Source: an uncultured Verrucomicrobia subdivision 3 bacterium
Lineage (GTDB): Bacteria > Verrucomicrobiota > Verrucomicrobiia > Limisphaerales > UBA11358
Direction of reading: 5' to 3'
Assembly (NCBI GenBank): GCA_903889895.1
Contig: CAISYZ010000089.1
Span: forward strand, 5,274-69,273
Length of the DNA: 64,000 nt
Shown: piece after piece, positions 1-41,800 of the stretch
Position numbering within the stretch: the first letter of the stretch is position 1
Layout of the letters: each line of letters starts with the position of its first letter
The notes under the pieces: model-generated
Told to the model about the DNA's origin: nothing
Seen by the model: the letters and a program-made list of their open reading frames with translations, nothing else
The model's database searches: none
Position numbers and translations under genes: made by a program

Positions 1-660
1 TTCATCGATGGCAACCGCGAGCATCAACAGCGCGAACTCTGGCGGCTGGCCGGCGAAGGCTCGGAGATCCGCAACAACGGCATCACCGTGCAGGCGGTGA
101 GTGATTCGGTGGTGGAACATGTCACCTGCGCGCGCAACCGTTCGGGCGGGCTAGTCACGACGCTCGGCGTGGCGCGCCTGACCGTCCGCGATTTGGAGGC
201 GTTCGACAACGAGTTTGACGGACTGGCCTGCTATCTCACGACGGACAGTTTGTTTGCGGATTTGTTTCTGCACAACAATCCCGGCGCCGGCATCTCGCTG
301 GATTTGGCTTTCAACCACAACGTCATCAGCAACGCCGTCCTGACGGCGAACGATCTGGGCATCTTCATGCGCGCGAGCCGGGAGAACCAGTTTCTGAATG
401 TCGCCATCCGCAACAGCCATCATCACGGCGTTTTCATGGCGCATTCCGAAACGCAGACGGCGAGCGGCTGGGGGCCGGAGCCGAAAAGCGAGTGCGTCTA
501 TAATTCCTTCACGAACCTCATTGCCATGAACTGCGGCGGCGCGGCCTTCCGCGTCAACAACACCACCTGCACGCACAATGTTATCATCCGCGCCAAGTTT
601 GAGGGCAACGTGAACGGCGGCCTTTCGCAGGCGCAGCCCAATCTGGTGGCGGTGCAATAA
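1..660 (+). CDS. Right-handed parallel beta-helix repeat protein, C-terminal part (5' end outside the window)
   Basis: The frame is open from nt 1 and stops at 658-660. Periodic N/I/V-rich repeats ('NHNVISNAVLTANDLGIFM', 'VAIRNSHHHGVFM', 'NNTTCTHNVIIRA') are typical of pectate-lyase-fold beta-helix proteins. Confidence 0.5.
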   Translation, partial: FIDGNREHQQRELWRLAGEGSEIRNNGITVQAVSDSVVEHVTCARNRSGGLVTTLGVARLTVRDLEAFDNEFDGLACYLTTDSLFADLFLHNNPGAGISLDLAFNHNVISNAVLTANDLGIFMRASRENQFLNVAIRNSHHHGVFMAHSETQTASGWGPEPKSECVYNSFTNLIAMNCGGAAFRVNNTTCTHNVIIRAKFEGNVNGGLSQAQPNLVAVQ

Positions 661-767
661 ATCTTCTTTCCGCTCCGCCAAAGGTTTGTCGCCGGTTTTC
701 TCAATTTGAGATTGGATTTCGCGCGAACATCCGTATTGTTTGCGTAAGAAATTTTCCGAATAATTTT

Positions 768-1781: not shown

Positions 1782-1786
1782 TTTTT

Positions 1787-2794: not shown

Positions 2795-2814
2795 CATTGG
2801 CGCGCGCACCCCTT

Positions 2815-3900: not shown

Positions 3901-3941
3901 CGTCGCTTGCCGTTTTTGGCGGTTCATCCCATCATCGAAAA

Positions 3942-6617: not shown

Positions 6618-6659
6618 AGGCGGATACAGACTTGGCAGCCAATCAGTCTGTTAGGCCAC
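6592..6659 (+). repeat. Partial copy (L1) of the island repeat R, ending in GTTAGGCCAC. It overlaps the last 8 codons and the stop of the phosphoesterase gene.
   Basis: Manual alignment to 36626-36692 gives about 57 of 68 identical positions with one 1-nt indel. It contains the hairpin ACAGACTTGG-CAG-CCAA(TCA)GTCTGT. Confidence 0.7.
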
Positions 6660-7004
6660 TTGGCTATCTCACTAATTTGTGCCATGAATCACATCGGCCA
6701 CTACTTGGTTTGTGCTAGCAGGCTGCTTAATAATCAATCGCAACTTGCGCTCTTTTTCGGTGTCGGCATGAACGGCATACCAGCGGTAATATTTCGAAAT
6801 GGGTTATCAAGTTGGTGGATTTTCGCGAGCTACCCACCCTCGGTCACACGCATAGGGCAAGGCAGAAAATTTCGGTGAATTGAGGACAAGGATGGTGCGT
6901 TTAAGGGCGTTATTTTGCGCAAAGCCCTCTCTGCACAGGAAATTAAACTTTGGCAATTAGTTGCGCCTCTGCCACTCTTTTGCGCGATTTCATAATTTCC
7001 ACGC

Positions 7005-8048
7005 ATGAGCAAAAAAATATTCATTGGCACGGACAGCGGCGCGACCACCACCAAGCTTTGTGCCGTCTGGGAAACCGGCGAGCCCGTTTCAAACAAGGTG
7101 CTGCAACGTTCCACCGGATCGGAAAACGGTCGCGAAGCGGTCATCCACTCGTGGATCACCGGGGTCAGTGACTTTCTTACACAAAATAATCTGCAATGGT
7201 CGCACGTTGCTGGCGTTGGCCTCGCGATTCCTGGCCCGTATGAACGCTACGGCGTTTGGAGCAACACGCCTAATTTACCGAAGAGCTTCGCGGGTTGGGA
7301 CGTTTTCACCGACTACAAAACCGCCCTCGCCCAACAGGCCGGGCGCGAACTGCCGCTCGTGTGTGGCAACGACGGCAATTACGGCGGCGTGGCCGAAGCC
7401 CGTCTTGCTCGTGGCAATGCGAAGATCAGCGTCCTGATGCTCATGCCCGGCTCTGGCCTTGGCGCGGCGTTTGTCGGCGCAGATGGCCTTTGCCTCGATG
7501 GCGACACGCTCGCCGGGATGGAGGCCGGCCACATGCCCGTGCCGCTGCAATTGCTCGGCCTGACCGGCAAGCCTTTCACCTGCGGCTGTGGCCGCGACTG
7601 GGGCTGTGTCGAGGCTTACACAACCATTTCCGGCCTGCCGCAATTGCTGGTCGAACGAATAAAAAATTTCCCAGATCACGAACTGGCTAGGTCCACCGCG
7701 CCCACGAAAGAAAAAGTGCTTTCCCTGCGCACTCGCGCGCAAAAAGGCGACGCACTGGCCCTCGACATCTTTGATTTTCAGGCGCGCGTCATGGGTATCC
7801 ATGTCGCCAATCTTGCCATGGCGCTCGATCCGGCCATCGTCGTCATTGGTGGCGGCCTCATGGATCACGAGGCAACCACGCCTGAATTCCGTGTTCGTTA
7901 CATGAACGCCATCCGCGCGGCCGCGCGGCCCTATTTGTGGGCACCGCAAAAAGACACCATTAAAATTGTGCCCGCCGCACTCGGTGAACTTTCGCAGGCC
8001 ATTGGTGCGGCACTCATGGCCATGTATCAAAGCCAGGACAAGCATTGA
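7005..8048 (+). CDS. ROK family sugar kinase
   Basis: 347 aa. It has an N-terminal 'IGTDSGATTTK' ATPase motif and the ROK zinc motif 'CGCGRDWGCVEAY'. Confidence 0.75.
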   Translation: MSKKIFIGTDSGATTTKLCAVWETGEPVSNKVLQRSTGSENGREAVIHSWITGVSDFLTQNNLQWSHVAGVGLAIPGPYERYGVWSNTPNLPKSFAGWDVFTDYKTALAQQAGRELPLVCGNDGNYGGVAEARLARGNAKISVLMLMPGSGLGAAFVGADGLCLDGDTLAGMEAGHMPVPLQLLGLTGKPFTCGCGRDWGCVEAYTTISGLPQLLVERIKNFPDHELARSTAPTKEKVLSLRTRAQKGDALALDIFDFQARVMGIHVANLAMALDPAIVVIGGGLMDHEATTPEFRVRYMNAIRAAARPYLWAPQKDTIKIVPAALGELSQAIGAALMAMYQSQDKH

Positions 8049-8083
8049 CTGGCAACTTGATAATTTGATTTCCAATGGAAGCG

Positions 8084-8115
8084 AAAATGCCGCCGGAGCA
8101 ATCCGGCGGCATTTT
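8084..8115. terminator. Bidirectional rho-independent terminator between the convergent ROK and argJ genes
   Basis: AAAATGCCGCCGGA-gcaa-TCCGGCGGCATTTT forms a perfect stem flanked by an A-run and a T-run. Confidence 0.7.
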
Positions 8116-8142
8116 GCGATGACCAACACGGTTGCGAATCAA

Positions 8143-9477
8143 TCAACCACCCAGCGAACTCGCGTCCGTCACGTCGCCCTTGTTGAAGTCCACATATTCT
8201 TCCGTCAAATCGGCGGCATACATCACCGCGCTCGCCTTGCCGAGGTTCAGCTGGATGTGCAGCTCAAATTCCTTCGGCTCAACAGCGGTGCAAAGCTGCT
8301 TGAATGTCGCCTTCGTCGGTTGGCCACGTTTGAGGCTCCAGAGAATTTTGTTCGACCTTGGCGCGGAATAACCAATGTCAATTTTCTCTTCCACCACCGT
8401 CGCCTGCGAATAGCCGATGGCGTCAATGATGCGACCCCAATTCGGGTCGCCGCCGTGCCAGCTTGTTTTCACGAGCGCGCTGTTCGCCACGGCGCGCGCG
8501 GCAGCATCGGCATCCTGAATTGTTTTCGCGCCATTCACGCGCACGGTTACGACGCGGTGAACCCCTTCGCCATCGCGGACAATTTTTTTGGCCAGTTCGA
8601 GGCAAACATGACTGAGCGCGGCTTGAAAATTTTTAAATTCAGGATTTTTTTGGGTAAGTGGTTTATTGCCGGCCAGTCCATTTGCCAAAACCAACACCGT
8701 GTCATTCGTGCTCATATCGCCGTCCACAGTGATGCGATTGAAGCTTTGCGCCACGGCTTCCTGCAAGGCCGACTGCAAAACTTTTTTCTCCACCGCCGCG
8801 TCTGTCGTGATGAAGCCAAGCATCGTCGCATGCAGTCCGCCGTGCGGCAGCGCCGCTGGCCGCGCACCGGTCGCGCTCATGCCAGGCTGAATCATGCCCG
8901 CGCCTTTGCAAATGCCGCCGATGCGCACCGTCTTTCCGCCGAGCTTGAATTCAACCGCGATTTGTTTCGGCTTGGTGTCGCTGGTCATGATGGCTTCCGT
9001 CGCACTGTCTGCGTGCGCGGCGGAGGTGCCAAGCTCCATTGCGGCTTCGAGAATGCCGGCGCGGATATTGTCCATCGGCATCGTCACACCAATGCGTCCG
9101 GTCGAGCCGACCAGCGCGCGGCCGGCAGAAAGTGCCAAAGTTTTTTCCGTGAACGCCACCATCGCGCGCGCATCGGCCATGCCCTGTTTGCCGGTGCAGG
9201 CATTCGCGTTGCCGGAATTCACGACGACGACTTGTGCCTTGCCCTTTTTAGCGCGCTCGACGCAAACTTTCACCGGCGCGGCGCAAACTTGATTCGTCGT
9301 GAACATGCCGGCGACCGTCGCCGGCGTTTCGGAGACAATGAGCGCGAGGTCGCGCTTCTGGCCTTTGTTCGAGCCTTTGCCGGTGCCGAGCTTTTTGATG
9401 TCGCAAAACACGCCGCTGGCCAGGAAACCGATGGGCGCTACAATAGAGCCGGGAATTTCTTTGAACTGATTTTTCAT
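8143..9477 (-). CDS. argJ: Bifunctional glutamate N-acetyltransferase / amino-acid acetyltransferase
   Basis: 444 aa. It carries the autoproteolytic site context 'HATMLGFITTDA' and shows overall ArgJ colinearity. Confidence 0.9.
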   Translation of the reverse strand: MKNQFKEIPGSIVAPIGFLASGVFCDIKKLGTGKGSNKGQKRDLALIVSETPATVAGMFTTNQVCAAPVKVCVERAKKGKAQVVVVNSGNANACTGKQGMADARAMVAFTEKTLALSAGRALVGSTGRIGVTMPMDNIRAGILEAAMELGTSAAHADSATEAIMTSDTKPKQIAVEFKLGGKTVRIGGICKGAGMIQPGMSATGARPAALPHGGLHATMLGFITTDAAVEKKVLQSALQEAVAQSFNRITVDGDMSTNDTVLVLANGLAGNKPLTQKNPEFKNFQAALSHVCLELAKKIVRDGEGVHRVVTVRVNGAKTIQDADAAARAVANSALVKTSWHGGDPNWGRIIDAIGYSQATVVEEKIDIGYSAPRSNKILWSLKRGQPTKATFKQLCTAVEPKEFELHIQLNLGKASAVMYAADLTEEYVDFNKGDVTDASSLGG

Positions 9478-9551
9478 TTTCTAAATTAATTGAAGCCGGA
9501 AAAGACACGAATTGCACGAATTTTCACCAAGGGAATACTATTAATTCGCGC

Positions 9552-10376
9552 CTAAATTTTTATAGCATCAATTTCGAGCCGCACCATGCGGACGTGGATT
9601 TGGCCAGCGGCATCCGGCGGATGTCTGGCAACGTAGCGCTGCGTAATTGCCGCGATGAATTCCCCGCGCAAATTTTCCGGCACACGCTGGACAAACGGCA
9701 GCCACGTCGTCCGCAGCCACGTCGCAAAACCTTCCGCGCCAGCAAAAGCGGCATCTTTCGGCGCTAGCTTCAACGATTGAATTTTGAAACCAAACTTCGG
9801 CAACCAATTTTCGTAATCGCCCAGCGAATAAAAAAAATACGGCATCGGCATCCCGCGGAAAAATTCACGCCAGTGCTTCAGCCGCATCTCCGGCCGCAGC
9901 GCCAGAAAGACGTCGTGCGCGTTGCCTTTGCCGCCGCAGGAAACTATCAATCGTCCGTCGGGCTTCAGAACCGTTGACGCGCCGCGCAGAAATTTTTCAT
10001 GATCATCCACCCAGTGCATAGCGGCGTTGGAAAAGACGAGGTCGAAGCCGCTGGCAGCATCGCCTTCACCGATTTCGCGCGCGTCGGAAACTTCAAATTT
10101 CAGGTTTGAAATTTTTGACGGTGGAAATTGTTTTTTGGCGTAGGCAACCATTTCCGCCGAGGCATCAACGCCGACCGCTGAACCGTGCGGCACGGCGTGG
10201 GCGAGCTCTGCCGTCACCTTACCGTCGCCGCAGCCGACATCAAGAATTCGTTCGTCGCCGCGCAGATGCAGCCGCGCGATCAGCTCGCGCGCCCAGCTTT
10301 GTTGCACGACGGAATTCGCGGCGTATTCGGCCGCGTTCCACTTAGCTGGTTGAGCGTTCTTAAGCCGCACGATCAC
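9552..10376 (-). CDS. Class I SAM-dependent methyltransferase (trans-aconitate methyltransferase-like)
   Basis: 'ILDVGCGDGKVT' is SAM motif I, and 'FDLVFSNAAMHWV' is also present. The ATG-defined ORF (to 10520) would overlap argC by about 150 nt. A GTG at 10376 or 10370 gives a 4-nt overlap or a small gap instead, so the start is uncertain. Confidence 0.7.
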   Translation of the reverse strand: MIVRLKNAQPAKWNAAEYAANSVVQQSWARELIARLHLRGDERILDVGCGDGKVTAELAHAVPHGSAVGVDASAEMVAYAKKQFPPSKISNLKFEVSDAREIGEGDAASGFDLVFSNAAMHWVDDHEKFLRGASTVLKPDGRLIVSCGGKGNAHDVFLALRPEMRLKHWREFFRGMPMPYFFYSLGDYENWLPKFGFKIQSLKLAPKDAAFAGAEGFATWLRTTWLPFVQRVPENLRGEFIAAITQRYVARHPPDAAGQIHVRMVRLEIDAIKI

Positions 10377-11410
10377 ACCAAGCCGGCAGTTTCCGGCCAG
10401 CCGCACAGGAGATTCATGCTTTGCACCGCCTGACCGCTCGCGCCTTTGACCAAGTTGTCTTCCGCGCTCATCACGATGAGCCGGCCGGTGCGCGGATCGA
10501 GCCGCCACGCGATTTCGCAAACGTTCGTTCCGACGACATTTTTTGTGTCGGGCAAAGCTTTGCCTTCAAGCAGCCGCACAAACGGTTCGTTCGCGTAAGC
10601 CTTGGCATAGCACGAGGTGATGGCTTCGGCGTTCGCCTCTTTCGTTGGCTCCAGATAAAGTGTCGTCAATATGCCGCGGTTCACCGGAATCAAGTGCGGA
10701 GTAAATTGAATGACTACTTTAGATCCGGCGGCGATTGAAAGTTGTTCTTCAATTTCCGACAAATGCCGATGCTTCGGCACGCCATAGGGCCGCACGCTTT
10801 CGTTGCATTCGCAAAACAGATAATCAATCTCCGCCTTGCGCCCCGCGCCGCTGACGCCGCTCATGGAATCAGCGATGATGCCGGCGGGCTTGATCAGGCC
10901 AGCCTTCAAAAGAGGAATCGTCGGCAACAATATGCTCGTTGGATAGCAGCCGGGCGAGGCGATGAGCAAAGATTTTTTGATTTCTTCGCGGTAAAATTCC
11001 GGCAAACCGTAAACAGATTTTTTCAACAGCTCCGGCGCGGGATGCTCGTGCGCGTAAAATTCTTTGTAAATCTCCGCGCTTTTGAGCCGGAAGTCCGCGC
11101 TCAAATCAATCACGATGACGCCGGCGGCGTTCAGCGGCACGGCGAATTCCGCCGCGACGCCGTGCGGCAATGCGAGAAAAACCACGTCAGCTTGCTTGGC
11201 GAGCAATTCAGCATTCGGCTCGACGAACCGGAGTAACTTTGATTTCGGATGGCTGGCGAATTTTGGAAATACCTGTGCTAGCGTCTGTCCTGCGTTCGCG
11301 CGCGAGGTGACGGCCACCAATTCCGCGTGCGGATGATGGAGCAGCAGTTTTACCAACTCTTCGCCGGAGTAACCCGACGCGCCAACAATGGCGACTTTCT
11401 TTGTTTTCAT
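10373..11410 (-). CDS. argC: N-acetyl-gamma-glutamyl-phosphate reductase
   Basis: 345 aa. 'VAIVGASGYSGEEL' and the active-site 'ASPGCYPTS' are present. Confidence 0.9.
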   Translation of the reverse strand: MKTKKVAIVGASGYSGEELVKLLLHHPHAELVAVTSRANAGQTLAQVFPKFASHPKSKLLRFVEPNAELLAKQADVVFLALPHGVAAEFAVPLNAAGVIVIDLSADFRLKSAEIYKEFYAHEHPAPELLKKSVYGLPEFYREEIKKSLLIASPGCYPTSILLPTIPLLKAGLIKPAGIIADSMSGVSGAGRKAEIDYLFCECNESVRPYGVPKHRHLSEIEEQLSIAAGSKVVIQFTPHLIPVNRGILTTLYLEPTKEANAEAITSCYAKAYANEPFVRLLEGKALPDTKNVVGTNVCEIAWRLDPRTGRLIVMSAEDNLVKGASGQAVQSMNLLCGWPETAGLV

Positions 11411-11452
11411 TTTGAAAAATTTTAACCACGAAAAACCCGAACCACACGAAAA

Positions 11453-11484
11453 TAAAAAACCCGCCGGCCAAGGCCAGCGGGTTT
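11453..11484 (-). terminator. Rho-independent terminator downstream of rpsI
   Basis: The minus strand reads CCCGCTGGCC-tt-GGCCGGCGGG followed by TTTTTTATTTT. Confidence 0.6.
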
Positions 11485-11503
11485 GAAAAACTTTCTTGTT
11501 CGA

Positions 11504-11902
11504 TCAACGCTTTGAGAACTGGAAGCGTTTGCGGGCGCCTGGCTGGCCGTATTTCTTGCGCTCGCGGGCGCGCGGGTCGCGCGTGAGAAACCCTTCCGCT
11601 TTCAGCGCGGGGCGCAGGGCAGCGTCGAACTTGAGCAGCGCGCGGGAAATGCCGTGGCGCACCGCACCGGCTTGGCCGTTCGGGCCGCCGCCGGTGACAT
11701 TCACGCGCACGTCCAGCTTGTCCGACGTGGCGGTAATGGTCAGCGGCTGGGTGACCGCAGAGCGCTGGGTGTCGAGCGGAAAATAATTTTCAAGCGGGCG
11801 ACCGTTAACGGTGATTTTGCCGCTGCCGCTCGCGATGCGAACGCGGGCGATAGCAGTTTTGCGGCGACCGGTGCCGAGGAATTCGTTGGTGGTTTTGGCC
11901 AT
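11504..11902 (-). CDS. rpsI: 30S ribosomal protein S9
   Basis: 132 aa, with '[12 protein letters not shown]' and the C-terminal '[18 protein letters not shown]'. Confidence 0.95.
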
Positions 11903-11910
11903 AACAGAAA

Positions 11911-12345
11911 TTATTTGCCGGCGGCGAGCACGGCAGGCGTCTGGGCCTGATGGTCGTGCTTCGGACCTTTGAAGACTTTGAGTTTGGTTAGCAGCACGCG
12001 GCCGAGGCGGTTCTTCGGAATCATCCCCTTCACGGCGTGTTCAATGAGCTTTTCCGGATTCTTGGCGCGAACCTGCTCGACGGTGGCGTATTTTTCGCCG
12101 CCCTTCCAGCCTGAATAGCTCATGTATTCCTTGGCGGTCTCTTTTTTGCCGGTGACGCGCACTTTTTCGGCGTTGACGACGATGACAAAGTCACCAGCAT
12201 CGAGGTGCGGCGTGTAAACAGGCTTGTTTTTCCCGCGCAAAATATCAGCCACCTGCACGGCCAGTCGGCCAAGCACGGCGCCGTCGGCATCAATGACATG
12301 CCACTTGCGCTGGTCCAAATTAACTTTCGGCAAATGCGTTTTCAT
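11911..12345 (-). CDS. rplM: 50S ribosomal protein L13
   Basis: 144 aa, with '[29 protein letters not shown]'. Confidence 0.95.
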
Positions 12346-12462
12346 CTAAATTCGAAACAAAGGGACGTGGAAACTATCAAACGGGCGAATGAAGTCAACA
12401 CGTGATTTTAATAAAATCGGTTTGCGCTTTACAGCCGTTCCCAAAATCTAAAGATTTGGCTG

Positions 12463-13656
12463 ATGAAAAAGCTGGTTTCAATCTTCACAGTTGCCGTTGT
12501 GCTCGTCGGAGTTTTTTGTGCGCCCGTTGCCCAAGCCGCCGTGCTGGCACAGGCTTCACCCACCAATTCACCGCCGCCCGGTGTGGAGATTGCCAAGACA
12601 CTTTCCACCATCACCGGCGTGGCCATTTCGCCGCTGCTGGGTGTCAGCGCGGTTGGCTGTTACCAATGGAGCAAGGCCAAGACTGACGCGGAAAAAGCCA
12701 AACTGCCGTGGTTCGCAAATCCATTGTTCTGGGTGCCGGCAATTTTGCTGTTGGTCGCTTGCTTCATCAAAGACACCGCCGGCGTGGCGTTGCCGACCGT
12801 TGCCAAAAAACCTTTTGACGCGCTTGAAACCGTCGAGCATAAAATCTCCGGTCTCGTCGCCACCGGCGCGTTTGTGCCGATCATGGTCAACATCATTCAC
12901 GAGGCCAACTCCACCGGTGGCCAACCCGTCGCGTCTCTGAGTTCGCTCGGTTTTGCCGCGATGGATTTTAGCTGGCTCTACAATGTGCTGGTGACGCCCG
13001 TGGCGATGGCGGCATTTTTCATTGTCTTTCTCGCCTCCAATGCCATCAACATCCTCATTCTCATGAGCCCGTTCACGACCGTGGATACGGCGCTCAAGGG
13101 ATTCCGAACGCTGATTCTGGCCAGCGTCGCCGGGACGGCGTTCATGAATCCGTGGGTCGGCGCAGCTTGGGCACTGATAGTCCTGTTGATTTCATATTTC
13201 ATCGCCGGCTGGAGTTTCAGGTTGTCACACTTCGGCTTAGTGTTCATCTGGGAATTTTTCACCGGCAGCAAAGGTCGTTTCCATCCCGACGCCAAGGAAA
13301 ATAAAATGTTTCTCGGCCGCAAAATTGAAAAAGTTCCCACGCGCACCTACGGCAAATTGTTTCGCAATGAAAAGAGCGAACTAGTTTTCGACTACCATCC
13401 GTGGCTGGTGTTGCCAAAACGCACGCTGATTCTGCCCGCCGGCAATTACGAAGCCGGGCGCGGACTCTTCTACTCCGAAATTTTACGGGTCGAAGGCGAT
13501 TCTGCGAAAACCGTGATTCTGCTGCCACCGCGCTATCGCGGCCACGAGGAAGAGATCGCAAAGATTTATAATTTTGCCGGCGTCCGCGATGTCGGTATCC
13601 GCGCCGCGTGGGCTTGGTTCAAAAGCCTGTTCGGCAGCAAAACGGCCGTGGCTTGA
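12463..13656 (+). CDS. Polytopic membrane protein of unknown function with a soluble C-terminal domain
   Basis: 397 aa, with a signal peptide and at least 6 hydrophobic segments. Codon usage is consistent with the neighbouring genes. No family was recognised. Confidence 0.5.
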   Translation: MKKLVSIFTVAVVLVGVFCAPVAQAAVLAQASPTNSPPPGVEIAKTLSTITGVAISPLLGVSAVGCYQWSKAKTDAEKAKLPWFANPLFWVPAILLLVACFIKDTAGVALPTVAKKPFDALETVEHKISGLVATGAFVPIMVNIIHEANSTGGQPVASLSSLGFAAMDFSWLYNVLVTPVAMAAFFIVFLASNAINILILMSPFTTVDTALKGFRTLILASVAGTAFMNPWVGAAWALIVLLISYFIAGWSFRLSHFGLVFIWEFFTGSKGRFHPDAKENKMFLGRKIEKVPTRTYGKLFRNEKSELVFDYHPWLVLPKRTLILPAGNYEAGRGLFYSEILRVEGDSAKTVILLPPRYRGHEEEIAKIYNFAGVRDVGIRAAWAWFKSLFGSKTAVA

Positions 13657-13726
13657 GTGCCGCATTTGCTTGACGCCACTGGTGGAAAGCGGCATTTAAC
13701 CGCGCCAACAGTGCGGTTATTTTTCC

Positions 13727-15235
13727 ATGAAACTTTTCCGACGCAAACACGCCGCCGACTTGCAGGCCGAGGCCACCAGCGACCAGAGCCTCAAACGCGC
13801 GCTCGGCCCGATCAACCTCACCTCGCTCGGTATCGGCGGCATCATCGGCGCGGGCATTTTCGTGCTGACCGGCCACGCGGCGGCGCAATACGCCGGGCCG
13901 GCGATTGTCCTGTCGTTCATTTTTGCGGGCATTGCCTGCGCATTCGCCGGGCTTTGCTACGCGGAATTCGCCTCGATGATTCCGCTGTCCGGCTCGGCTT
14001 ACACTTACGGCTACGCGACGCTCGGCGAATTAATCGCGTGGATCATCGGTTGGGATTTGATTCTGGAATATTTATTCGCCGCCTCGACCGTGGCCGTCGG
14101 CTGGAGCGGCTACGTCGTTTCGTTCCTGAAAGATTTTGGGGTCACGATCCCCGCCGCGTTCACGTCCGCGCCTTACAACCACACCACGCCGCCCGACGCG
14201 CAATGGTGGAACCTCTGGCAGCTCTTCGCCAAAGGCTGGGTCAGCACCGGTGCCGTGCTGAATGTCCCAGCCATGGTCGTCGTCGGCATCATCACCATCC
14301 TGCTCATCATCGGCATCAAGGAATCGGCGAATTTCAACAACTTCATCGTCGCCTTGAAACTCGCGGTCATTCTCACCTTCATCGGCGTCGGCGCGGCCTA
14401 CATCAACCAGGGTAACTGGCATCCGTTCGTGCCGCCGGCGGATGCGGCGGGCAATTTCGGCTGGCATGGCGTGATCCACGGCGCGGCGGTGATTTTTTTC
14501 GCCTACATCGGCTTCGACGCGGTATCCACCGCCGCGCAGGAAGCGAGACGACCGCAGCGAGACATGCCCATCGGCTTGCTCGGCTCGCTCGGCATCTGCA
14601 CGGTTCTTTACATCGCCGTCGCGCTGGTGCTGACCGGCATCGTCAATTATTCGCAGCTCAACGTGCCCGCGCCAATCGCGCTGGCCATCAATTCTCTCGG
14701 CTCGTCGCTTGCGTGGCTTACATTTTTCATCAAGATCGGCGCTATCGCCGGATTGTCGTCGGTCATCCTGGTGCTGCTGCTCGGCCAGTCGCGGATTTTT
14801 TACACGATGTCCAAGGACGGCTTGCTGCCGCCGGTATTCAGCGCCGTGCATCCGAAATTCCGGACGCCCTGGCTCGCGCAACTCTTGACTGGCGCGGCCG
14901 CCATGCTCATCGCCGGATTGTTTCCAATCGGCTTGCTCGGCGAACTCGTTTCCATCGGCACGCTGCTGGCGTTTGCCATCGTCTGCGCCGGCGTTTTGGT
15001 TTTGCGCTGCACCGACCCGCAAATCGCGCGGCCGTTTCGCACGCCTGCCGTCTGGCTGTGCGCGCCGCTCGGCGTGGGTTCCTGCATTTTTCTCATGGCC
15101 GCCGGGTTGCCCGCTGATACTTGGGCGCGGCTCATCGTCTGGATGGTCATCGGCTTCGTGATTTACTTCGCCTACGGCCACCGGCATTCCAAGCTCCACC
15201 ACGGCTTGACCGGCAAAACCGATACATCCCGCTAA
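13727..15235 (+). CDS. APC-superfamily amino acid permease (cationic amino acid transporter-like)
   Basis: 502 aa. 'LKRALGPINLTSLGIGGIIGAGIFVLTG' is present, with about 12-14 TM segments. Confidence 0.85.
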   Translation: MKLFRRKHAADLQAEATSDQSLKRALGPINLTSLGIGGIIGAGIFVLTGHAAAQYAGPAIVLSFIFAGIACAFAGLCYAEFASMIPLSGSAYTYGYATLGELIAWIIGWDLILEYLFAASTVAVGWSGYVVSFLKDFGVTIPAAFTSAPYNHTTPPDAQWWNLWQLFAKGWVSTGAVLNVPAMVVVGIITILLIIGIKESANFNNFIVALKLAVILTFIGVGAAYINQGNWHPFVPPADAAGNFGWHGVIHGAAVIFFAYIGFDAVSTAAQEARRPQRDMPIGLLGSLGICTVLYIAVALVLTGIVNYSQLNVPAPIALAINSLGSSLAWLTFFIKIGAIAGLSSVILVLLLGQSRIFYTMSKDGLLPPVFSAVHPKFRTPWLAQLLTGAAAMLIAGLFPIGLLGELVSIGTLLAFAIVCAGVLVLRCTDPQIARPFRTPAVWLCAPLGVGSCIFLMAAGLPADTWARLIVWMVIGFVIYFAYGHRHSKLHHGLTGKTDTSR

Positions 15236-15285
15236 CGTCGGTTTCTGCTGGTGGACAACTTTCGTTTGACAAATCACCGGCTGTT

Positions 15286-15303
15286 ACCTACCGTTCGGTA
15301 GGT
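15286..15303. promoter_or_regulatory. Candidate TetR operator: the 18-bp palindrome ACCTACCG-TT-CGGTAGGT, immediately upstream of the TetR start codon
   Basis: The 8+2+8 inverted repeat is perfect. A TTGACA hexamer lies at 15266-15271. Confidence 0.45.
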
Positions 15304-15305
15304 TT

Positions 15306-15941
15306 ATGGCCAAAGATACCTTGGACACCCGCCAGTTGATTCTCCGCGCCGCGCTCAAGCGGTTCGCGAACGGCGGCTATGCGGCCACATCCGTCCAGGA
15401 TATCGTGGACGACGCGCAGGTTTCCAAGCCGGCGCTTTATTATCATTTCAAGGACAAGGCCGGGCTGTTCCAAGCGCTCGTCCATGAGGCGCATGACGAA
15501 CGCTACCGCATCCTCCGCGAGGCGGCGGCGCAGGCTGAAGGCATTCGCGCGCAACTGGAGAACATTCTTGCCGGGCTGTTCGATTACTTCGGCAAAAACC
15601 GCGAGCTGATGCGGATTTCCTTCGCCACCATGTTCGCCGCGCCGGGCGAGGTGCCGGAAAACCTGTCCTACACCGACAAGTGCGAGCGCAATTTTGAATT
15701 CGTCCGCTCGCTCATCAAGCGCGCCCAGAAGTCCGGCGAACTGGACAAACATTTTGACTGTCAGGAATTGGCATTTGGTTTTTACGGACTGGCCAATTTT
15801 CACCTTGTCGGGCATCTCGTCTGCAAGGACTGCCAGCCGGACCGCTTGACTGCGCAACGCGTGGTGGAATTATTTCTGGCCGGCGCCGCTCCGAAGGCGG
15901 ATGCAAAAAAAATACGGGTTCAATCCAAGGAGAAAAAATGA
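15306..15941 (+). CDS. TetR/AcrR family transcriptional regulator
   Basis: 211 aa. The N-terminal HTH is 'RQLILRAALKRFANGGYAATSVQDIVDDAQVSKPALYYHF'. Confidence 0.85.
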   Translation: MAKDTLDTRQLILRAALKRFANGGYAATSVQDIVDDAQVSKPALYYHFKDKAGLFQALVHEAHDERYRILREAAAQAEGIRAQLENILAGLFDYFGKNRELMRISFATMFAAPGEVPENLSYTDKCERNFEFVRSLIKRAQKSGELDKHFDCQELAFGFYGLANFHLVGHLVCKDCQPDRLTAQRVVELFLAGAAPKADAKKIRVQSKEKK

Positions 15942-17062
15942 AGAAAAAAATAGTTTTTGGCATCATTATCGTGGTGGCTGTCGCCGGCGGGCTGGCAGCG
16001 GTGAAGGCGTTGCAAATCAAAACTCTCATCGGTTCCGCCGCGTTATTCGCGCCGCCGCCGGAAACCATCGCGACGGCTGTGGCGCACGCAGAAAACTGGG
16101 CGGACACGCTGCCGGCCGTCGGTTCGGTGAGCGCGGCGCAAGGCGTGACTGTCGCGCCGGAAATTGCCGGCACGATTACGGAAATCGCCTTTGAATCCGG
16201 GGCGACCGTGAAGCAGGGCGATTTATTGTTGAAACTCGACACGTCGTCCGAGGACGCGCAGTTGCGCGCGGCCGAGGCGCAGACGGAACTCGCGCGGCTC
16301 AACGCGGAGCGCAACCGTAAATTGATCGAAGACAAAACCGTTTCACAGTCCGAACTTGACACGACCGAGGCGACGTTGAAACAGGCACAGGCAAATGCCG
16401 ATGCCATCCGTGCCATCATCCAAAAGAAAACTATCCGCGCGCCGTTCGCTGGCAAGCTCGGCATCCGGCTGGTGAACCTCGGCGAATCGCTGGCGGTTGG
16501 GCAGGGTATCGTCTCGCTGCAATCGCTCTCGCCGGTGTTTGTAGATTTTTCGCTCCCGCAACAGGAGTTTGCGCAGTTGCAGACCGGCCTCAAGGTGCGC
16601 GCGTTTCTGGATGCGTATCCGACCAACCAGTTTGAAGGCGAACTGGCCGCGATCAATCCCGACCTCGACGCGGTGACGCGCAGCGTGCGGGTGCGTGCGA
16701 AGTTTGCGAATGATGGCGAACTGCTCCGCGCCGGCATGTTTGCGCGAGTGAGCGTGATTTTGCCGGAGGAGCAACCGGTGCTGGTCGTGCCGTCCACGGC
16801 GGTCATGAGCGCGCCGTATGGCGACTCGGTTTTTGTCATTACACCCGATGACAAACCGGGTTCAACCAATCTTGTGGCGCAGCAGAAATTTGTCCGCACG
16901 GGCCGGATGCACGGTGATTTTATCAGCGTGGAAACCGGCTTGAAAGCGGGCGACAAGGTCGCGACCGCCGGCTTGTTCAAGCTCCGCAATGGCATCAGCG
17001 TGCGCGAAAATAACGAGCTGGCGCCCAAGCCGTCGCTCGCGCCCAATCCGCCGAACACCTGA
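15938..17062 (+). CDS. Efflux RND transporter periplasmic adaptor (membrane fusion protein)
   Basis: 374 aa. It has lipoyl, hairpin and beta-barrel architecture and contains 'IRAPFAGKLGIR'. Its start forms an ATGA overlap with the tetR stop. Confidence 0.85.
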   Translation: MKKKIVFGIIIVVAVAGGLAAVKALQIKTLIGSAALFAPPPETIATAVAHAENWADTLPAVGSVSAAQGVTVAPEIAGTITEIAFESGATVKQGDLLLKLDTSSEDAQLRAAEAQTELARLNAERNRKLIEDKTVSQSELDTTEATLKQAQANADAIRAIIQKKTIRAPFAGKLGIRLVNLGESLAVGQGIVSLQSLSPVFVDFSLPQQEFAQLQTGLKVRAFLDAYPTNQFEGELAAINPDLDAVTRSVRVRAKFANDGELLRAGMFARVSVILPEEQPVLVVPSTAVMSAPYGDSVFVITPDDKPGSTNLVAQQKFVRTGRMHGDFISVETGLKAGDKVATAGLFKLRNGISVRENNELAPKPSLAPNPPNT

Positions 17063-34743: not shown

Positions 34744-36534
<1,791 letters not shown>

Positions 36535-36572
36535 CGGGCGAAAACAAATTCGCGATAGTAAGCCGAAATTCC

Positions 36573-36692
36573 CCGCGCCTGTCGAGCAAGATGCGTGGGC
36601 GGAGCCGGAAAAAACTTACGCGGGACGGTGAAAGTGGGAATGCCGACGGAAGGCAGAATCAGGCTTGGCCGCCTATCAGTCTGTTAGGACAC
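36573..36692 (+). repeat. Island repeat R (copy 1), ending in GTTAGGACAC
   Basis: This is a direct repeat of 37328-37441. The first ~75 nt differ at only 2-3 positions by manual alignment, and the last ~45 nt have diverged. The right part is homologous to 6592-6659. Confidence 0.85.
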
Positions 36693-36696
36693 ATGG

Positions 36697-36987
36697 TCAT
36701 AAAACACCCCTCAAATGCCAAATCCAACAGGACAGAAAAAAGGAAACGAGAATCACTGGAAAATATCCGAACCGAATCAACTCAATATCCAGACGACTCG
36801 GAGACTGCGGATGCCGCCAAATCAACACGGCTGCGCCTCCCCAAAACGAAACCAAAGCGATGCCGCAAATCTCAGCAATGCCGCCACCATCCAAAATCAA
36901 CAAGGCCAAAAGCCCCAAAACAATCTGGAGCGCAATCGCCTCGAAAATCGGGCTGTCATACTTTGGTGAAATCGGTATCCGTTTCAT
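36697..36987 (-). CDS. Cassette ORF 1: small 3-TM membrane protein, unknown function
   Basis: 96 aa from the ATG at 36987 ('MKRIPISPKYDSPIFEAIALQIVLGLLALLIL...'). A TTG at 37041 would add 18 aa. The region is AT-richer than its flanks. The opposite-strand ORF is a K/R-rich shadow. Confidence 0.4.
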   Translation of the reverse strand: MKRIPISPKYDSPIFEAIALQIVLGLLALLILDGGGIAEICGIALVSFWGGAAVLIWRHPQSPSRLDIELIRFGYFPVILVSFFLSCWIWHLRGVL

Positions 36988-36998
36988 GGTGTGCGAAT

Positions 36999-37039
36999 GT
37001 GGTCTAACAATTATTAGACCCCAGCTTTTGTGGCCTATC
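36999..37039 (+). repeat. Boundary motif copies to the right of cassette 1: GTGGTCTAAC (inside the palindrome GGTCTAA-caatta-TTAGACC) and GTGGCCTATC
   Basis: These motifs are in inverted orientation relative to GTTAGGACAC at 36683-36692. Confidence 0.6.
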
Positions 37040-37159
37040 AAGTTTCACGGAAACGAGATTGCGCTGCCTGTAAATCCTTGTCCAGCCCGTTCTATGGGCG
37101 AATGCACCCGGCACCGGAACCGGCACCGGCGGCAAAACCGTCCGCCCGCCATTCGGCCT

Positions 37160-37334
37160 TCAAAACTCCGCATCCAGCTTCAGCACGCAATGCCCCAGGT
37201 CTAGCCGCGAGCCGTTCGCCTCCGGTTGGAGGTGCGCCGCCAGCTTGTAGAGCCGGCCATAACCCGTCGTTACCAGCCCCGCCTTCCGCAACACGGCCAT
37301 GTGCTTGGAAACCTTCGGCGCCGTGCTCCGCGCC
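37160..37334 (-). pseudogene. Truncated 3' copy (last ~57 codons plus stop) of the wHTH regulator gene at 38084-38401
   Basis: Only 2 of 175 nt differ from 38084-38258, and both differences are synonymous Leu codons. Homology stops abruptly at CCGCGCC (37328-37334), where repeat R' begins. Weaker homology continues downstream to about 37078 (matching about 38004). Confidence 0.8.
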
Positions 37335-37441
37335 TGTCGAGCAAGATGCGTGGGCGGAGCCGGAAAAAACTAACGGCGGGACGGTGAAAGTGGGAATGCC
37401 GACGGAATCAGGCATGGCAGTCTAGCTCGGTATTAGGCCAC
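37328..37441 (+). repeat. Island repeat R' (copy 2), ending in TTAGGCCAC
   Basis: See 36573-36692. It is fused through a shared 7-bp CCGCGCC to the truncated HTH copy. Confidence 0.85.
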
Positions 37442-37448
37442 GGATCTC

Positions 37449-37907
37449 TCATTGATTGTGTGAAACATCCAAAGTGCAACTCACTGTAAAGTTCGTGCCA
37501 TCAAATCCAAATCGGTATGGTGACAAAACATAATACCCAAGGGTGCAGTGCTGGGTCTGCTCAATAAACGTCCCCTTCTGGTCATACGACAATATCAAAC
37601 CACCGGGTGGGATTTGAAGGTAGCACAAATGAACCTGCGAATACTCCGGCAGATAATGTGTCTCTACTAAAGCCTGCACATTAGTCGGCCAGTGACCGAA
37701 TCTCTCGCGATAAAGTCTGGCTCGCTGATATAGAGCAGCCTGATGCGTCTGACAAATATCCAATGCTTCATTTGCTCGCCCATGGGCATATTCAGATCTC
37801 TCCGCTTCATTTGCTCGCTCAAAATATAGATAGCACGCACTACTACCTGCGACTATGCCAGCAGCAAAAGCGAGGCTTAATGCTAAAACTCTGGCCAGTA
37901 TTTTCAT
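37449..37907 (-). CDS. Cassette ORF 2: small exported or membrane-anchored protein, unknown function (weak pseudopilin-like flavour)
   Basis: 152 aa, with an N-terminal hydrophobic anchor 'MKILARVLALSLAFAAGIVAG'. 'FGHWPTNVQALVETHYLPE' resembles GspG/pilin-type segments. The region is clearly AT-richer. An alternative ATG at 37928 lies inside the boundary motif (ATGTTAGGCCAC). Confidence 0.5.
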   Translation of the reverse strand: MKILARVLALSLAFAAGIVAGSSACYLYFERANEAERSEYAHGRANEALDICQTHQAALYQRARLYRERFGHWPTNVQALVETHYLPEYSQVHLCYLQIPPGGLILSYDQKGTFIEQTQHCTLGYYVLSPYRFGFDGTNFTVSCTLDVSHNQ

Positions 37908-37916
37908 AAGCGTGAA

Positions 37917-37957
37917 GTGGCCTAACATCCAAGTCGGCCAAGTTGGTTTGATTGTTC
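37917..37957 (+). repeat. Inverted copy of the R right end (GTGGCCTAACATCCAAGTCGGCCAAGTTGG...) bounding cassette 2
   Basis: It shares GTGGCCTAACA and CGGCCAAG with the reverse complements of 36652-36692 and 6618-6659. Confidence 0.6.
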
Positions 37958-38083
37958 GTGCATATCTAGGTTGTGGAGAAAAACTATGCTGGGCACAAGT
38001 GGATGTCCAACCTGTTCTATTGGCGAATGAACTTTGGACCGCCACCGGAACCGGCGGCAACGCGTCCGCCCGACCTTCGGCCT

Positions 38084-38401
38084 TCAAAACTCCGCATCCA
38101 ACTTCAGCACGCAATGCCCCAGGTCCAGCCGCGAGCCGTTCGCCTCCGGTTGGAGGTGCGCCGCCAGCTTGTAGAGCCGGCCATAACCCGTCGTTACCAG
38201 CCCCGCCTTCCGCAACACGGCCATGTGCTTGGAAACCTTCGGCGCCGTGCTCCGCGCCAGTCCCGCCAACACCCAGACCGGCAGCGCCTCGCCTTTGGCC
38301 AGCTCCTTCAGAATCCGCCAGCGCACCGGGTCGTGCAACACGGTGGCCAAGTGCCTTAGTTTGGTGGCCGACGAAGTGGTGGTGGGTTCGGAGGTATTCA
38401 T
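38084..38401 (-). CDS. ArsR-like winged helix-turn-helix transcriptional regulator
   Basis: 105 aa from the ATG at 38401. 'LHDPVRWRILKELAKGEALPVWVLAGLARSTAPKVSKHMAVLRKAGLV' is the ArsR/SmtB-type HTH pattern. Confidence 0.65.
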   Translation of the reverse strand: MNTSEPTTTSSATKLRHLATVLHDPVRWRILKELAKGEALPVWVLAGLARSTAPKVSKHMAVLRKAGLVTTGYGRLYKLAAHLQPEANGSRLDLGHCVLKLDAEF

Positions 38402-38827
38402 ACCCCCAGCCAACACCCTTTCGCCCCCCGCCGTCAAGCCTTTTAAGCCAGCGGACGACTTGCAGAGACGAACGGACGAGCATCAGAAGAAAACCAACGC
38501 ACTTGAAAACCAAACATACGGATAACCAAAACGAACGGACGACTGCCAGAAGAATAAAAAGCGGTATGGAAAGCAGATAAATATATGAACAAAGCAAACA
38601 AACGATTATAAAGCTCTAACAGACGGCAACCAAAAGCAAATATATGACTTGTATCATCACGCAGATGCCGAAACTTCGTTCACAAAGGCGTTCCGGCTCG
38701 ATTCGAAGGCGCTCGGGAGGTGGGCGAACCGGGTTTTTACCGCGAAATACTCGAAATACGCGAAAGCGGTTTAATCGGGAGTCCCCCGTTCGCGTATTTC
38801 GCGTGGTTTGCGGTGAAAACCAGCTGC

Positions 38828-41800
38828 TTATTCTTCGGCGAACAGGTATTCCAAGTCCACTGCCGTGAGGCTGCGGGCAAAACCTTCTTCGCCGAGCACG
38901 TCGGCAATGGTCTTGGCCTTGGATTGCTGGAGTTCCCAGATTTTTTCCTCCACCGTGCCGGGCGCGATGAGCCGGTAGGCGTTCACCGTCTGCGTCTGGC
39001 CGATGCGGTGCGAGCGGTCAATGGCCTGCGCCTCCACCGCCGGGTTCCACCACGGGTCGTAAAGCACCACGTAGCTGGCGTTGGTGAGGTTCAGGCCGGT
39101 GCCGGCGGCGCGCAGGCTCAGCAGGAACACGCTCGCGCCGGTGTCTTTCTGGAAATCGTTGACGACGGACTGGCGGTCCTTGGTCTGGCCGGTGAGGGTG
39201 TGCGTGCGGATGTTGCGCGCCTGGCATTCCTTCTCCAGCAGTTGCAGCATCTGCACAAACTGCGAGAAGACGAGCACCTTCTGGCCGTCGGCGATGAGCG
39301 GGTCGAGCAGTTCGAACAGGGTGTCGGTCTTGCCGCTGGCGGTGTCGCTGCCCACGAGCGACGGATGGCAGCACACCTGCCGCAACCGCGTGAGCGCGGC
39401 GAGGACGTGCATCTTGGATTTGTTGAGGCCCTGCGTCTCGACGGCCTTCATCACCTGGTCGCGGCTGCGGCGCAACTCGGCGAGGTAAAGTTTCCGCTGA
39501 TCTTCGCCCAGCGGGCAATCGCGGCGTTCCTCGATGCGGTCGGGCAAATCTTTCGCGACGTGTTTTTTCAGGCGGCGCAGCAGCAGCGGGCGCAGCTTGG
39601 CGGACAGGCGCCGGCGCGCGATGCGTTGCTCGGCCTCGGCATTCTCGCCGCCCTTCGGCTCGTAGGTGTCGAGGAACTGTTCCTGGTTGCCGAGGTAGCC
39701 GGGCTGGATGAAATCCACGATGCTCCACAAATCCAACAGGCGGTTTTCCAACGGCGTGCCGGTGAGCGCGATCTTGTGTTCGCACTTCAACTGTTTGACG
39801 GATTGCGTGACTTGCGCGCCGGGGTTCTTGATGAACTGCGCCTCGTCCAGAATGACGGCGCGGAAGGCGAACTTGTGAAATTCCTCGAGGTCGCGGCGGA
39901 GCAGGGCGTAGTTGGTGACGATGAGGTCGTGCTGCGGAATCTGCTTCCGCAAATTATGGCGCGCCGCGCCGCTTTCGAGCACGAGCACCTTCATGTCCGG
40001 CGTGAACTTCTCCGCCTCGCGCCGCCAGTTGTGCAGCACGGACGCGGGACAGATGACGAGCGACGGCTTGGGATTCTTTTTGTTCTGCTCCTTGAGCCAC
40101 GCGAGCCAGGTCAAGGTTTGGAGCGTTTTGCCCAAGCCCATGTCGTCGGCCAGAATGCCGCCGAGCTTCACTCCCACGAGGTGCGCAAGGAAATCGAAGC
40201 CGTCCTTCTGATACGGCCGCAGTTCCGCCTGCAAACCCGCCGGCAGTTGCGCCGCCGGCACGCCCTTGAAATCCTTGACGCGTTCGCGCAAGGCCTGCGC
40301 CTCCGGCGAATCCACGAAGCGTTGCAAGCCGCCCTCGTCCAGATGCGCGACGTGTTCGAGCCCGACCTTCTGCGGCACGGCGATAAGACCGTCCACGCCC
40401 ATGTCGGCCATGGCCTCATGCGCGCCCTGCACGGCGGCGGTGTCGAGTTCCACCCAGCCGGCGTTCGGCAGCTTGACGAAACGGCTCGTCGCGGCGGCCA
40501 GACGGTCAAGGTCGGCCTTGGAAAGCTTCATGCCTTCCGCTTCCCATTCGGCGGAGACGGCGAGCCAGTCAATGCCGCTGCCCTTCACAACGAGGCGCGG
40601 CTTGAGCTGGCGTGGCTTGAGGAAGAGATGGTGGAACGCGGGGTTGCCGAGGAATTCGGCGTCGGCCGGCTTCGTGCCCCACGCGTCGGCGAGCAGGCCG
40701 AGGAAGTTTTCATTCGCATCGCCAATCCACAGCCCGGGTTCCTGCATGAACCAGTCGAGTTTGCGCAGCCAGTGCACCGCCGGTTCGAGGCGCGGGTCGT
40801 CGAGGATTTCCGGCTTGTCGCCGGGTTTGATGACGCGGCCGTGCGGCGTCCACTCGTGGCCGTTCCAGACCCAGGTGCTTTTGTCGCGCAGGCTTTTCGC
40901 CATGAGCCGCAACTGCACGGTGTCGTCCTGCAATTCAAACACGAACTGCGGCGTCGCCGGATGTGCGATGCAAAGCTGGTCCCAGTCCACGCCCTGATTG
41001 GCCTGCGACTTGCGCAGATGCAGCAGCAGGCGGTGGCTCAGCTTGCGCACCGGCACGGACGGTTTTTGCGCGAGATATTTCAGCACGCCGTTCGGCGGCG
41101 CGTTGCGGAGCAGATAAAAAGTGTTGCCGATGAGCGCAATCGGCGACTGGCGGTTGAAGAACTTCGCCTCGGCGATGGGATGGAACTTTCCGTCCGGCAG
41201 CGCGATGCGGTGCGTGAAGGCCAGTTCCTGCGTGCCGTTCTCGAGTTGCGGCGTGAGCGAAATGACTTCGCCGTGGAAATCAATCGGCATGCCGTTGCCG
41301 GCGAGTTCGAGACGGCCGGTGTTGCCCCAGCGCGCGAGCCATTGCAGCAGCTCGGCGTCGGTCAGCAGCAGCGAAGTCTCGTGGCCGGCGCGCTCGCGGT
41401 GCGTGTCGTAAATCCACTGGATGAATTCCCAGTCCCACGGCGTGAACAGCTCCTGCTCGTGCGCGGCGCGGACAACGAGGTCCACGAGGTCGTGCAGCGA
41501 GCGCGCCTTCTCGCCGGTGCGCGGGCGCAGCAGCAGAAATTGCAGCAGCATCCGGTGGCGCGACGGGTCGGCTTCGTCCGCCTGCGGCTTGCCGACGACG
41601 CGGAGCGTGGCGCGCGGTGTGTCGAGATGCAGCGGGGCGGAGGGCGCGAGCCAGTTTTCCAGTTCGCGGACGAGGCGGAGTTCCTGTTCGGCTTCCTCGG
41701 CGCGGGCGAACCGTTCCGGGCTGGCGTGCGGCTGCAATTCCGGCGGCACGGAGCGCTTGGCGCGCAGAAACAGAAACGCGAGTTCTTCCAGCCGCGCCTT

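Follow-up and report, generated by a model that had tools for sequence, protein, structure and literature searches.

This study concerns the interval between a regulator gene and carB in a 64,000-nucleotide stretch of DNA (the window) from an uncultured Verrucomicrobia subdivision 3 bacterium (contig CAISYZ010000089.1). Between 34.7 and 42.1 kb all genes lie on the minus strand, in the order SNF2 helicase, ArsR-family helix-turn-helix (HTH) regulator, a small cassette gene (c2), a second copy of the 3' end of the regulator gene, another small cassette gene (c1) and carB. A preliminary description of this DNA had read the locus as modular, which is correct, and had taken a 924-bp unit within it (37335-38258), bordered by the heptamer CCGCGCC, for a small integrating element that regenerates the 3' end of the regulator gene. 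Here we describe the anatomy of the locus, its forms in related strains, and the probable origin of the 924-bp unit. The features are as follows (ORF, open reading frame).

42097-38828, minus strand: SNF2 helicase gene, followed by an AT-rich spacer before the regulator gene
38084-38401, minus strand: intact ArsR-family HTH regulator gene, 105 aa, with Pfam HTH_20 and HTH_5; holds the third CCGCGCC copy (38252-38258)
37917-38083, minus strand: 5' core box of c2 (GTTAGGCCAC, 37917-37926), left flank of unit 2 and copy B of the regulator-downstream DNA; the final ~30 nt resemble the L'-spacer-R' end of a canonical attC
37449-37907, minus strand: cassette 2 ORF (c2), 152 aa, or 159 aa if the ATG at 37928 is used; N-terminal hydrophobic anchor, no Pfam family
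37374-37441, minus strand: cassette-end element of c2, a 68-nt tail reading GTGGCCTAAT...CCCGCCG on the minus strand
37328-37373, minus strand: R-prime-right, second copy of the 46-nt carB upstream segment, GCCG|TTAG variant
37160-37334, minus strand: displaced regulator 3' fragment, codons 51-105 and stop, ending in the second CCGCGCC copy (37328-37334)
37023-37159, minus strand: non-coding DNA 3' of the regulator stop codon, copy A; 81% identical to copy B across 57 nt and unrelated beyond that
36999-37022, minus strand: attI-like simple site at the 5' edge of c1, reading GGGGTCTAAT-AATT-G|TTAGACCAC on the minus strand
36697-36987, minus strand: cassette 1 ORF (c1), 96 aa, membrane-type with three hydrophobic segments, no Pfam family
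36619-36692, minus strand: cassette-end element of c1, about 75 nt, reading GTGTCCTAAC...CACCGTCCCGCG on the minus strand
36573-36618, minus strand: R-right, native 46-nt carB upstream segment of unit 1, beginning with the first CCGCGCC copy (36573-36579)
34744-36534, minus strand: gene for the C-terminal half of CarB, 596 aa, with Pfam CPSase_L_D1/D2 and MGS; the carB leader lies upstream

The cassette interiors are mutually unrelated and low in GC (0.48 at 36693-36998 and 0.46 at 37442-37916, against 0.58 for the window).

Direct repeats and a single novel joint

On the plus strand CCGCGCC stands at 36573-36579, 37328-37334 and 38252-38258, which are three module junctions, as previously described. 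Two longer direct repeats are also present. A 200-nt segment (37139-37338) recurs at 38063-38262 with 98% identity and a spacing of 924, and a 79/80-nt segment (36573-36651) recurs at 37328-37407 with about 98% identity and a spacing of 755. The two copies of the regulator 3' end (37160-37334 and 38084-38258) differ at 2 of 175 nt (37177/38101 and 37202/38126), and both differences are synonymous because the same 57 residues are encoded by both copies, in agreement with the earlier count; the 132 nt adjoining the joint are identical. Only one joint, 37328-37334, is novel. Its parental sites, 36573-36579 and 38252-38258, match at 7 of 7 positions and at 10 of 11 (CCGCGCCNGTC), and by direct reading of the sequence they agree at 13 of 17 positions around the joint. 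The three CCGCGCC copies reduce to one coincidence between these two parental sites.

The heptamer is ordinary microhomology and is not meaningful as an attachment (att) site, the role given to it before. It occurs 99 times on both strands of the 64 kb (44 on the plus and 54 on the minus strand), where shuffled sequences predict about 49, and such abundance was what the preliminary description itself had named as evidence against its model. Moreover, the pair is one of many comparable ones: in the rebuilt single-unit allele (1.2 kb), direct repeats of 7 nt or longer form 49 pairs at distances of 200-1200 nt, one exact 10-mer among them. The nearest G|TT boundary is 46 nt away from the joint, which falls within coding sequence that has no GTT, and about 300 nt of the regulator gene and its flank are duplicated; for these reasons the 924-bp repeat is attributed to illegitimate recombination and not to an integrase. 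Re-parsing the borders of the unit onto G|TT sites was rejected, because the end of homology to the parental flanks fixes the novel joint.

As expected of a tandem duplication, contiguous DNA is repeated head to tail at this locus, and the only novel joint lies at a short repeat found at both parental sites, but the two units are not copies of one another. Their flanks are 97-98% identical, yet the cassettes and ~75 nt of the left flank are unrelated, and therefore either an allele replacement as a second step or an event between two alleles is needed.

Forms of the slot in related strains

Metagenome contigs were retrieved by exact-protein look-up with the regulator, carB, c1 and a 46-aa fragment ORF, and the regulator protein was identical on 13 of them. 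At least six separate assemblies contain the two-unit form with 100% identity (L001, L002, L004 and L046 in full; L003, L045 and L047-L050 in part). All of these contigs span the joint, so the two-unit structure is real and not an assembly artefact. The deletion product that the preliminary description had predicted, in which removal of 37335-38258 restores an intact ArsR-type regulator gene, appears to be represented by L005. This contig is 100% identical to the window without 37335-38258, carries a single unit with c1, and shows with zero extra bases that the joint is exact. A single unit with a third cassette, c3 (151 aa), is present on the 155-kb contig L038, and a 91-kb contig has equal gene spacing. 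A fourth cassette, c4 (83 aa, weakly Imm33-like), adjoins carB on L041, which begins just past the regulator stop codon and in which the number of units is not visible. Thus, the single-unit or "empty" form expected in relatives exists with c3 and, in L005, apparently with c1, its status with c4 being hidden by the contig end, and the expected alternative cassettes in the same slot were found as c1, c3 and c4. The fixed right-hand neighbour of the slot is carB, with the same protein following every slot allele. In addition, L073 (JGI 3300006113, 1-900; another sample) begins 61 nt upstream of the joint seen in the window and continues with the regulator 3' fragment, c4 and carB.

In a more distant relative (L052; JGI Ga0007882_10010554), whose carB is 96% identical, the order is SNF2, a C-type-lectin-like gene and carB, without the regulator gene, and upstream of carB its sequence matches the window again precisely from G|TTAGTTTTTTCC on. 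The R-right segment is common to all slot alleles and to this relative. A metagenome pattern scan for the junction between R and the carB leader matched two contigs. A genome-collection scan with the regulator family returned metagenome-assembled genomes (MAGs) of Verrucomicrobia subdivision 3, in none of which the regulator adjoins carB or its 3' end is comparably duplicated. An apparent regulator fragment at the start of L067 was rejected as a contig break in a two-copy gene, not a duplication.

Boundaries of the cassettes and identity of the alleles

The comparison of these contigs establishes the anatomy of the locus, its alleles and their boundaries. On the regulator side, the c1, c3 and c4 alleles share their flank up to GGGGTCTAAY-AATT-G|TTAG and diverge after it in the allele alignment. 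On the carB side, all alleles and L052 are identical from ...CCGCCG|TTAGTTTTTTCC (G|TTAGTT) onward. Neither swap boundary coincides with CCGCGCC: one is 46 nt and the other about 330 nt away from it. When the cassette is removed in silico, CTAAC-AATT-GTTAG remains, that is, two inverted boxes with a 4-nt spacer, which is the layout given for attI (PMC12614218). The regulator-carB interval is best read as a slot for one small, low-GC, integron-type gene cassette, with strains differing in the cassette that they hold (c1, c3 or c4).

The R variant (G-CGTAAG) and the R-prime variant (GCCGTTAG) differ exactly at the carB-side boundary. The R-prime variant adjoins carB in the c3 allele (L038), in the c4 allele (L041) and in the distant L052, and the R variant was found with c1 only. 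Because R-prime is what normally adjoins carB in c3, c4 and L052, R-prime-right would once have lain directly upstream of carB in a regulator-c2-carB allele, and because the two variants are allele-linked, the two units of the window are different alleles and not diverged copies. Single-nucleotide polymorphisms (SNPs) in the regulator 3' end and the downstream DNA are mosaic among alleles.

Integron character of the cassettes

The cassettes carry integron core boxes, G|TTRRRY at the 5' edge and RYYYAAC at the 3' edge. For example, c1 reads G|TTAGACCAC...GTGTCCTAAC and c2 reads G|TTAGGCCAC...GTGGCCTAAT; c3 is alike, and the boxes of c4 are weaker (TTTAGGCGT...GCCTAAC). An exact look-up of the 152-aa c2 protein gave no record, and about 40 homologues of c2, of 152 aa, were found in Verrucomicrobiae. 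In two sets of homologues that were inspected, the gene is framed by G|TTAGGCC...GGCCTAAC-type boxes whatever the neighbouring genes are, exactly in L022-L029 and in degraded form in L030-L037. The homologues lie downstream of rpsT, in the kdsA-kdsC interval, beside IS110-family transposases or upstream of a SMI1_KNR4 gene; in the kdsA-kdsC interval the 3' box is missing and the 5' box survives only in degraded form (T|TTAGGGC). Two homologues belong to extended arrays of small ORFs that all point the same way, one with about 29 ORFs and the other with about 35.

The first of these arrays (L075; ENA ERZ25039534, 16.8 kb, 1-16772) includes a c2 homologue and a CdiI_3 protein among its ~29 ORFs, and no integrase is present on the contig. 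Its 15 attC sites of 91-112 nt lie between the ORFs and run from GCCTAAC to GTTAGGC. They can be folded into an R''/R' stem, an unpaired spacer, an L''/L' stem and a variable loop, with compensatory changes in 8 of the 20 predicted pairs. Just past the last attC, which is interrupted after its first ~20 nt, there is an IS110-family transposase gene, and transposases of this family lie in or beside attC sites of the arrays; some members of the IS1111 group of this family target attC (PMC11187229). Homologues of c2 thus occur in bona fide cassette arrays (L075 and the ~35-ORF array), integrons are known in Verrucomicrobia (PMC4889954), and c2 is of integron ancestry.

The 75-nt cassette tails of the window belong to a family of five, formed by those of c1 to c4 and by window 6583-6659, which start with an inverse core box. 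The attC hairpin (R''-L''...L'-R', 57-141 nt) was not found in the window's tails, as the closing stem is absent. The consensus fold of the five gave a weak internal hairpin only, and DNA folding of the R and R-prime elements gave z-scores near 0. A covariance model built from 17 attC sites of the L075 type, and hence representing one attC type only, was run with search filters off; it gave noise only in the window (best E 0.035, in the recQ coding sequence) and nothing in the slot alleles. No integrase, transposase or other recombinase was detected by Pfam among the ~40 window genes scanned. A tblastn search with IntI1, which serves as a lead only, gave no match in the window or the loci, and no intI adjoins the attI-like site within the 64-kb window, the extent of genome searched. 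The tRNA/tmRNA scan found no gene and the Rfam scan of the whole window no family, so an RNA-gene target is ruled out.

The tail at 6583-6659 is a third copy within the window (about 78% identical), reading GTGGCCTAAC...CACCGCCCAGGCG on the minus strand. Its far end supplies the last codons and the stop of an 891-aa beta-propeller/phosphoesterase gene (3942-6617), and an ORF-less, AT-rich stretch (GC 0.47) follows it to 6990. The region 6583-6990 is probably what is left of a cassette that decayed at another chromosomal site.

Origin of the two-unit structure

We consider it probable, at roughly 60%, that the regulator-carB slot has been duplicated in tandem and that the 924-bp "insertion" is its second copy, with two alleles joined at a 7-bp microhomology. 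The strain of the window would then hold the c2 allele and the c1 allele of the whole interval, head to tail, and at the new joint the segment that precedes carB in the c2 allele would run into the middle of the c1 allele's regulator gene. Two routes can be envisaged. A single illegitimate, microhomology-mediated recombination may have taken place between two alleles, for example with incoming DNA that was homology-anchored on one side, or a microhomology-mediated tandem duplication may have been followed by homologous replacement of one unit by the other allele. By either route the 175-nt regulator fragment would be a passive leftover, and homologous recombination across the 132-200-nt repeats could collapse the structure to one unit. 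The order of events and the recombination pathway are inferred here, and the steps of that pathway, such as uptake of foreign DNA or RecA-independent duplication, are not observable from the sequence, which is one of several points that weigh against this proposal. Another is that the predicted c2-only allele (regulator-c2-carB) was in none of the contigs retrieved. In addition, L005, which has exactly the unoccupied form, may have arisen when an assembler collapsed the exact 132-nt repeat, or through recombinational collapse or another secondary deletion, and need not be the ancestral single-unit allele.

A complication comes from L073, where the same joint stands upstream of c4 and not of c1. 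The CCGTCTCC SNP, seen elsewhere only in the c4 allele, is present in each of the two 46-nt carB upstream segments of this contig, and SNP and joint are physically linked, being only 34 nt apart. Either the joint had a single origin and was followed by cassette or allele exchange and gene conversion, or it arose twice. It is plausible that the joint predates the c1/c4 difference and that conversion homogenised the copies, given the SNP mosaics at the locus. Independent reuse of one among at least 49 microhomologies would, in contrast, indicate a directed process, as random use would not predict it. On such an account, which we hold to be unlikely, the GACAGGCGCGG site upstream of carB repeatedly recombines with the GACTGGCGCGG site in the regulator gene, driven by a recombinase encoded elsewhere or by a strong template-switch hotspot, and a slot for one cassette comes to hold two. 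The presence of the lineage SNP in both R copies is what a duplication in cis within the c4 lineage predicts, and the agreement of the two sites at 13 of 17 positions around the joint also speaks for this account. However, only two haplotypes are involved, the distal unit of L073 lies beyond the contig start, no recombinase was found among the ~40 window genes scanned, the site lacks the dyad symmetry typical of recombinase cores, and CCGCGCCNGTC also occurs at 2703 and 4036 without associated repeats. Frequent homologous exchange, visible in the SNP mosaics, could moreover have spread one joint among haplotypes. A bolder version, which seems to us distinctly unlikely, treats the slot as an integrase-independent cassette platform that duplicates itself repeatedly at a fixed joint (GACNGGCGCGG), the pair c2+c1 and the pair of an unseen cassette with c4 (L073) being independent directed events. 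Each duplication would then copy the regulator 3' end, the promoter-like segment downstream and the attI-like site, so that every cassette would have its own platform and none would be stacked at a single attI.

The remaining explanations fit less of the evidence. The preliminary description's model, a small mobile element (37335-38258) that is site-specific at CCGCGCC and carries a replacement 3' end, is highly improbable. The modular structure that it described is real, as are the other cassettes in the slot, and an unoccupied form appears to exist; 7-bp direct repeats do flank the unit, a replacement 3' end is present, and removal of the unit gives an intact gene, the configuration seen in L005. 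Nevertheless, its att-site and gene-regenerating mechanism fails on several grounds. The only gene in the unit is c2, and neither the unit nor the window yielded an integrase or mobility gene; the heptamer at its borders is common instead of a rare, specific att core; and cassettes are swapped at other boundaries. The unit consists wholly of DNA of the locus (carB upstream sequence, a cassette and the regulator 3' end) and, apart from the cassette, is 97-98% identical to the resident copies. It is thus a permuted copy of the host locus rather than foreign DNA, and its R-prime variant is the normal carB-adjacent allele of other strains. Furthermore, the parse is not unique: deletion of 36580-37334 instead leaves an intact regulator-c2-carB locus, which places the insertion upstream of carB with the regulator gene untouched. 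The "regeneration" of the regulator gene is automatic, since in any tandem duplication one copy of the gene stays whole. We also regard as very unlikely that an integrase encoded elsewhere set c2 beside c1 by attC x attI/attG recombination, with the repeats as recombination sites. The G|TTAGGCC / GGCCTAAC core boxes at the cassette edges, the c2 homologues in true attC arrays, and the insertion of cassettes at genomic attG sites, which is documented (Loot et al. 2024, as cited in PMC12614218), speak for it; the position of the joint away from any G|TT, the duplication of ~300 nt, which insertion by an integrase does not produce, and the lack of a canonical attC in the window and in every slot allele speak against it. 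Integrase activity may explain the first entry of each cassette into the slot, not the 924-bp repeat. Finally, the source is metagenomic, the locus is polymorphic and several contigs break inside the repeats, so that two population variants might have been stitched into a false tandem; the chance of this is negligible, as the joint of R-prime and the regulator 3' end is spanned, 100% identical, in assemblies from different pipelines.

Relation to known systems

The proposed duplication resembles microhomology-mediated tandem duplication and homology-facilitated illegitimate recombination in that contiguous chromosomal DNA is repeated head to tail with one joint at a GC-rich microhomology (7/7, 10/11) and no bases gained or lost. 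An intact copy of every gene is kept, and the repeat could collapse by homologous recombination, as perhaps in L005. The units of the window differ in carrying unrelated cassettes and allele-specific flanks, which is more than a simple fresh duplication would give, and the same joint occurs with a second cassette combination (L073). The cassettes themselves resemble integron cassettes outside integrons, such as clusters of attC sites lacking integrases (CALIN), single attC sites and attG insertions (IntegronFinder paper, PMC4889954; Loot et al. 2024, as cited in PMC12614218). Shared traits are small, promoterless, low-GC ORFs, G|TTRRRY/RYYYAAC boxes, attI-like inverted boxes with a 4-nt spacer, strain-wise replacement of cassettes, c2 homologues in attC arrays and no adjacent integrase; on the other hand, the 75-nt tails of the window neither fold nor score as attC, and each cassette has its own platform copy instead of being stacked at one attI. 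We therefore class the locus as integron-derived cassettes at a non-integron slot (CALIN/attG-like, without attC or intI) together with a microhomology tandem junction of two alleles.

Two other systems are superficially similar. Genomic islands that insert into tRNA or protein genes and rebuild their 3' ends also have direct repeats at their borders, a duplicated 3' end that keeps the gene intact and, apparently likewise, an unoccupied form in the population, whereas the unit of the window has no integrase or attP-type arms, is below 1 kb, consists of host-locus DNA and is bordered by a common heptamer. Its restored end also hardly differs from the displaced one, both being alleles of one gene. 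In orphan toxin/immunity cassette arrays (contact-dependent inhibition (CDI) and Rhs systems), repeated gene-3' fragments likewise alternate with variable small genes; moreover, c4 is weakly Imm33-like and the neighbours of c2 homologues include SMI1_KNR4 and CdiI_3. In the window, by contrast, the repeated gene encodes a DNA-binding regulator, the repeated part is constant and not a variable tip, and no toxin gene is present.

The analysis removes a tempting false lead, namely a sub-kilobase "gene-regenerating" element, and is a warning against taking short GC-rich direct repeats at duplication joints for att sites. It offers a concrete natural case of integron-type cassettes outside integrons, at a single chromosomal slot of an uncultured freshwater Verrucomicrobium, where the cassettes turn over between strains and one lineage appears to have the slot doubled by an illegitimate join of two alleles. 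Such a case can help to show how cassettes are maintained and spread when no integrase is close by. Closure of a cassette circle would read GGCCTAAC-N-GTTAGGCC.

Neighbouring sequences and related loci

The promoter and terminator scan found no sigma-70 promoter in 36300-38900, and terminators were no more frequent there than background; one could speculate that a weak -35/-10-like motif under the scan threshold lies in the regulator-downstream DNA. The gene at 34744-36534 is a split carB, that is, the C-terminal half of the large subunit alone, starting in the oligomerisation domain. Upstream of the regulator gene, the spacer to SNF2 varies among contigs (L002 lacks 46 nt of it, and in L038 it is 91% identical), and a 38-nt imperfect inverted repeat (82% complementary) lies at 38732-38821, directly after the SNF2 stop codon.

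In subdivision 3 MAGs (L009/L055 versus L010/L067), an identical 105-aa regulator homologue (84% identical to that of the window) has differing neighbours, with purM or an aldose epimerase gene on one side and a GSDH gene or a histidine kinase gene on the other. This is either a two-copy gene that confuses the assemblies or a recombination hotspot. In a related species (L012-L021; regulator homologue P0005, 87% identical), the SNF2-regulator interval varies in content, with none, one or two additional small genes (DUF3592, DUF6714, Wzz-like), each preceded by a ~60-nt repeat, ATAAAC..CTGGACACC.TCG..CATAGCG. This repeat, which may be a promoter or an operator, resembles ATAGAAC...CTGGACA just 3' of the regulator stop in the window (37079-37100 and 38004-38025).

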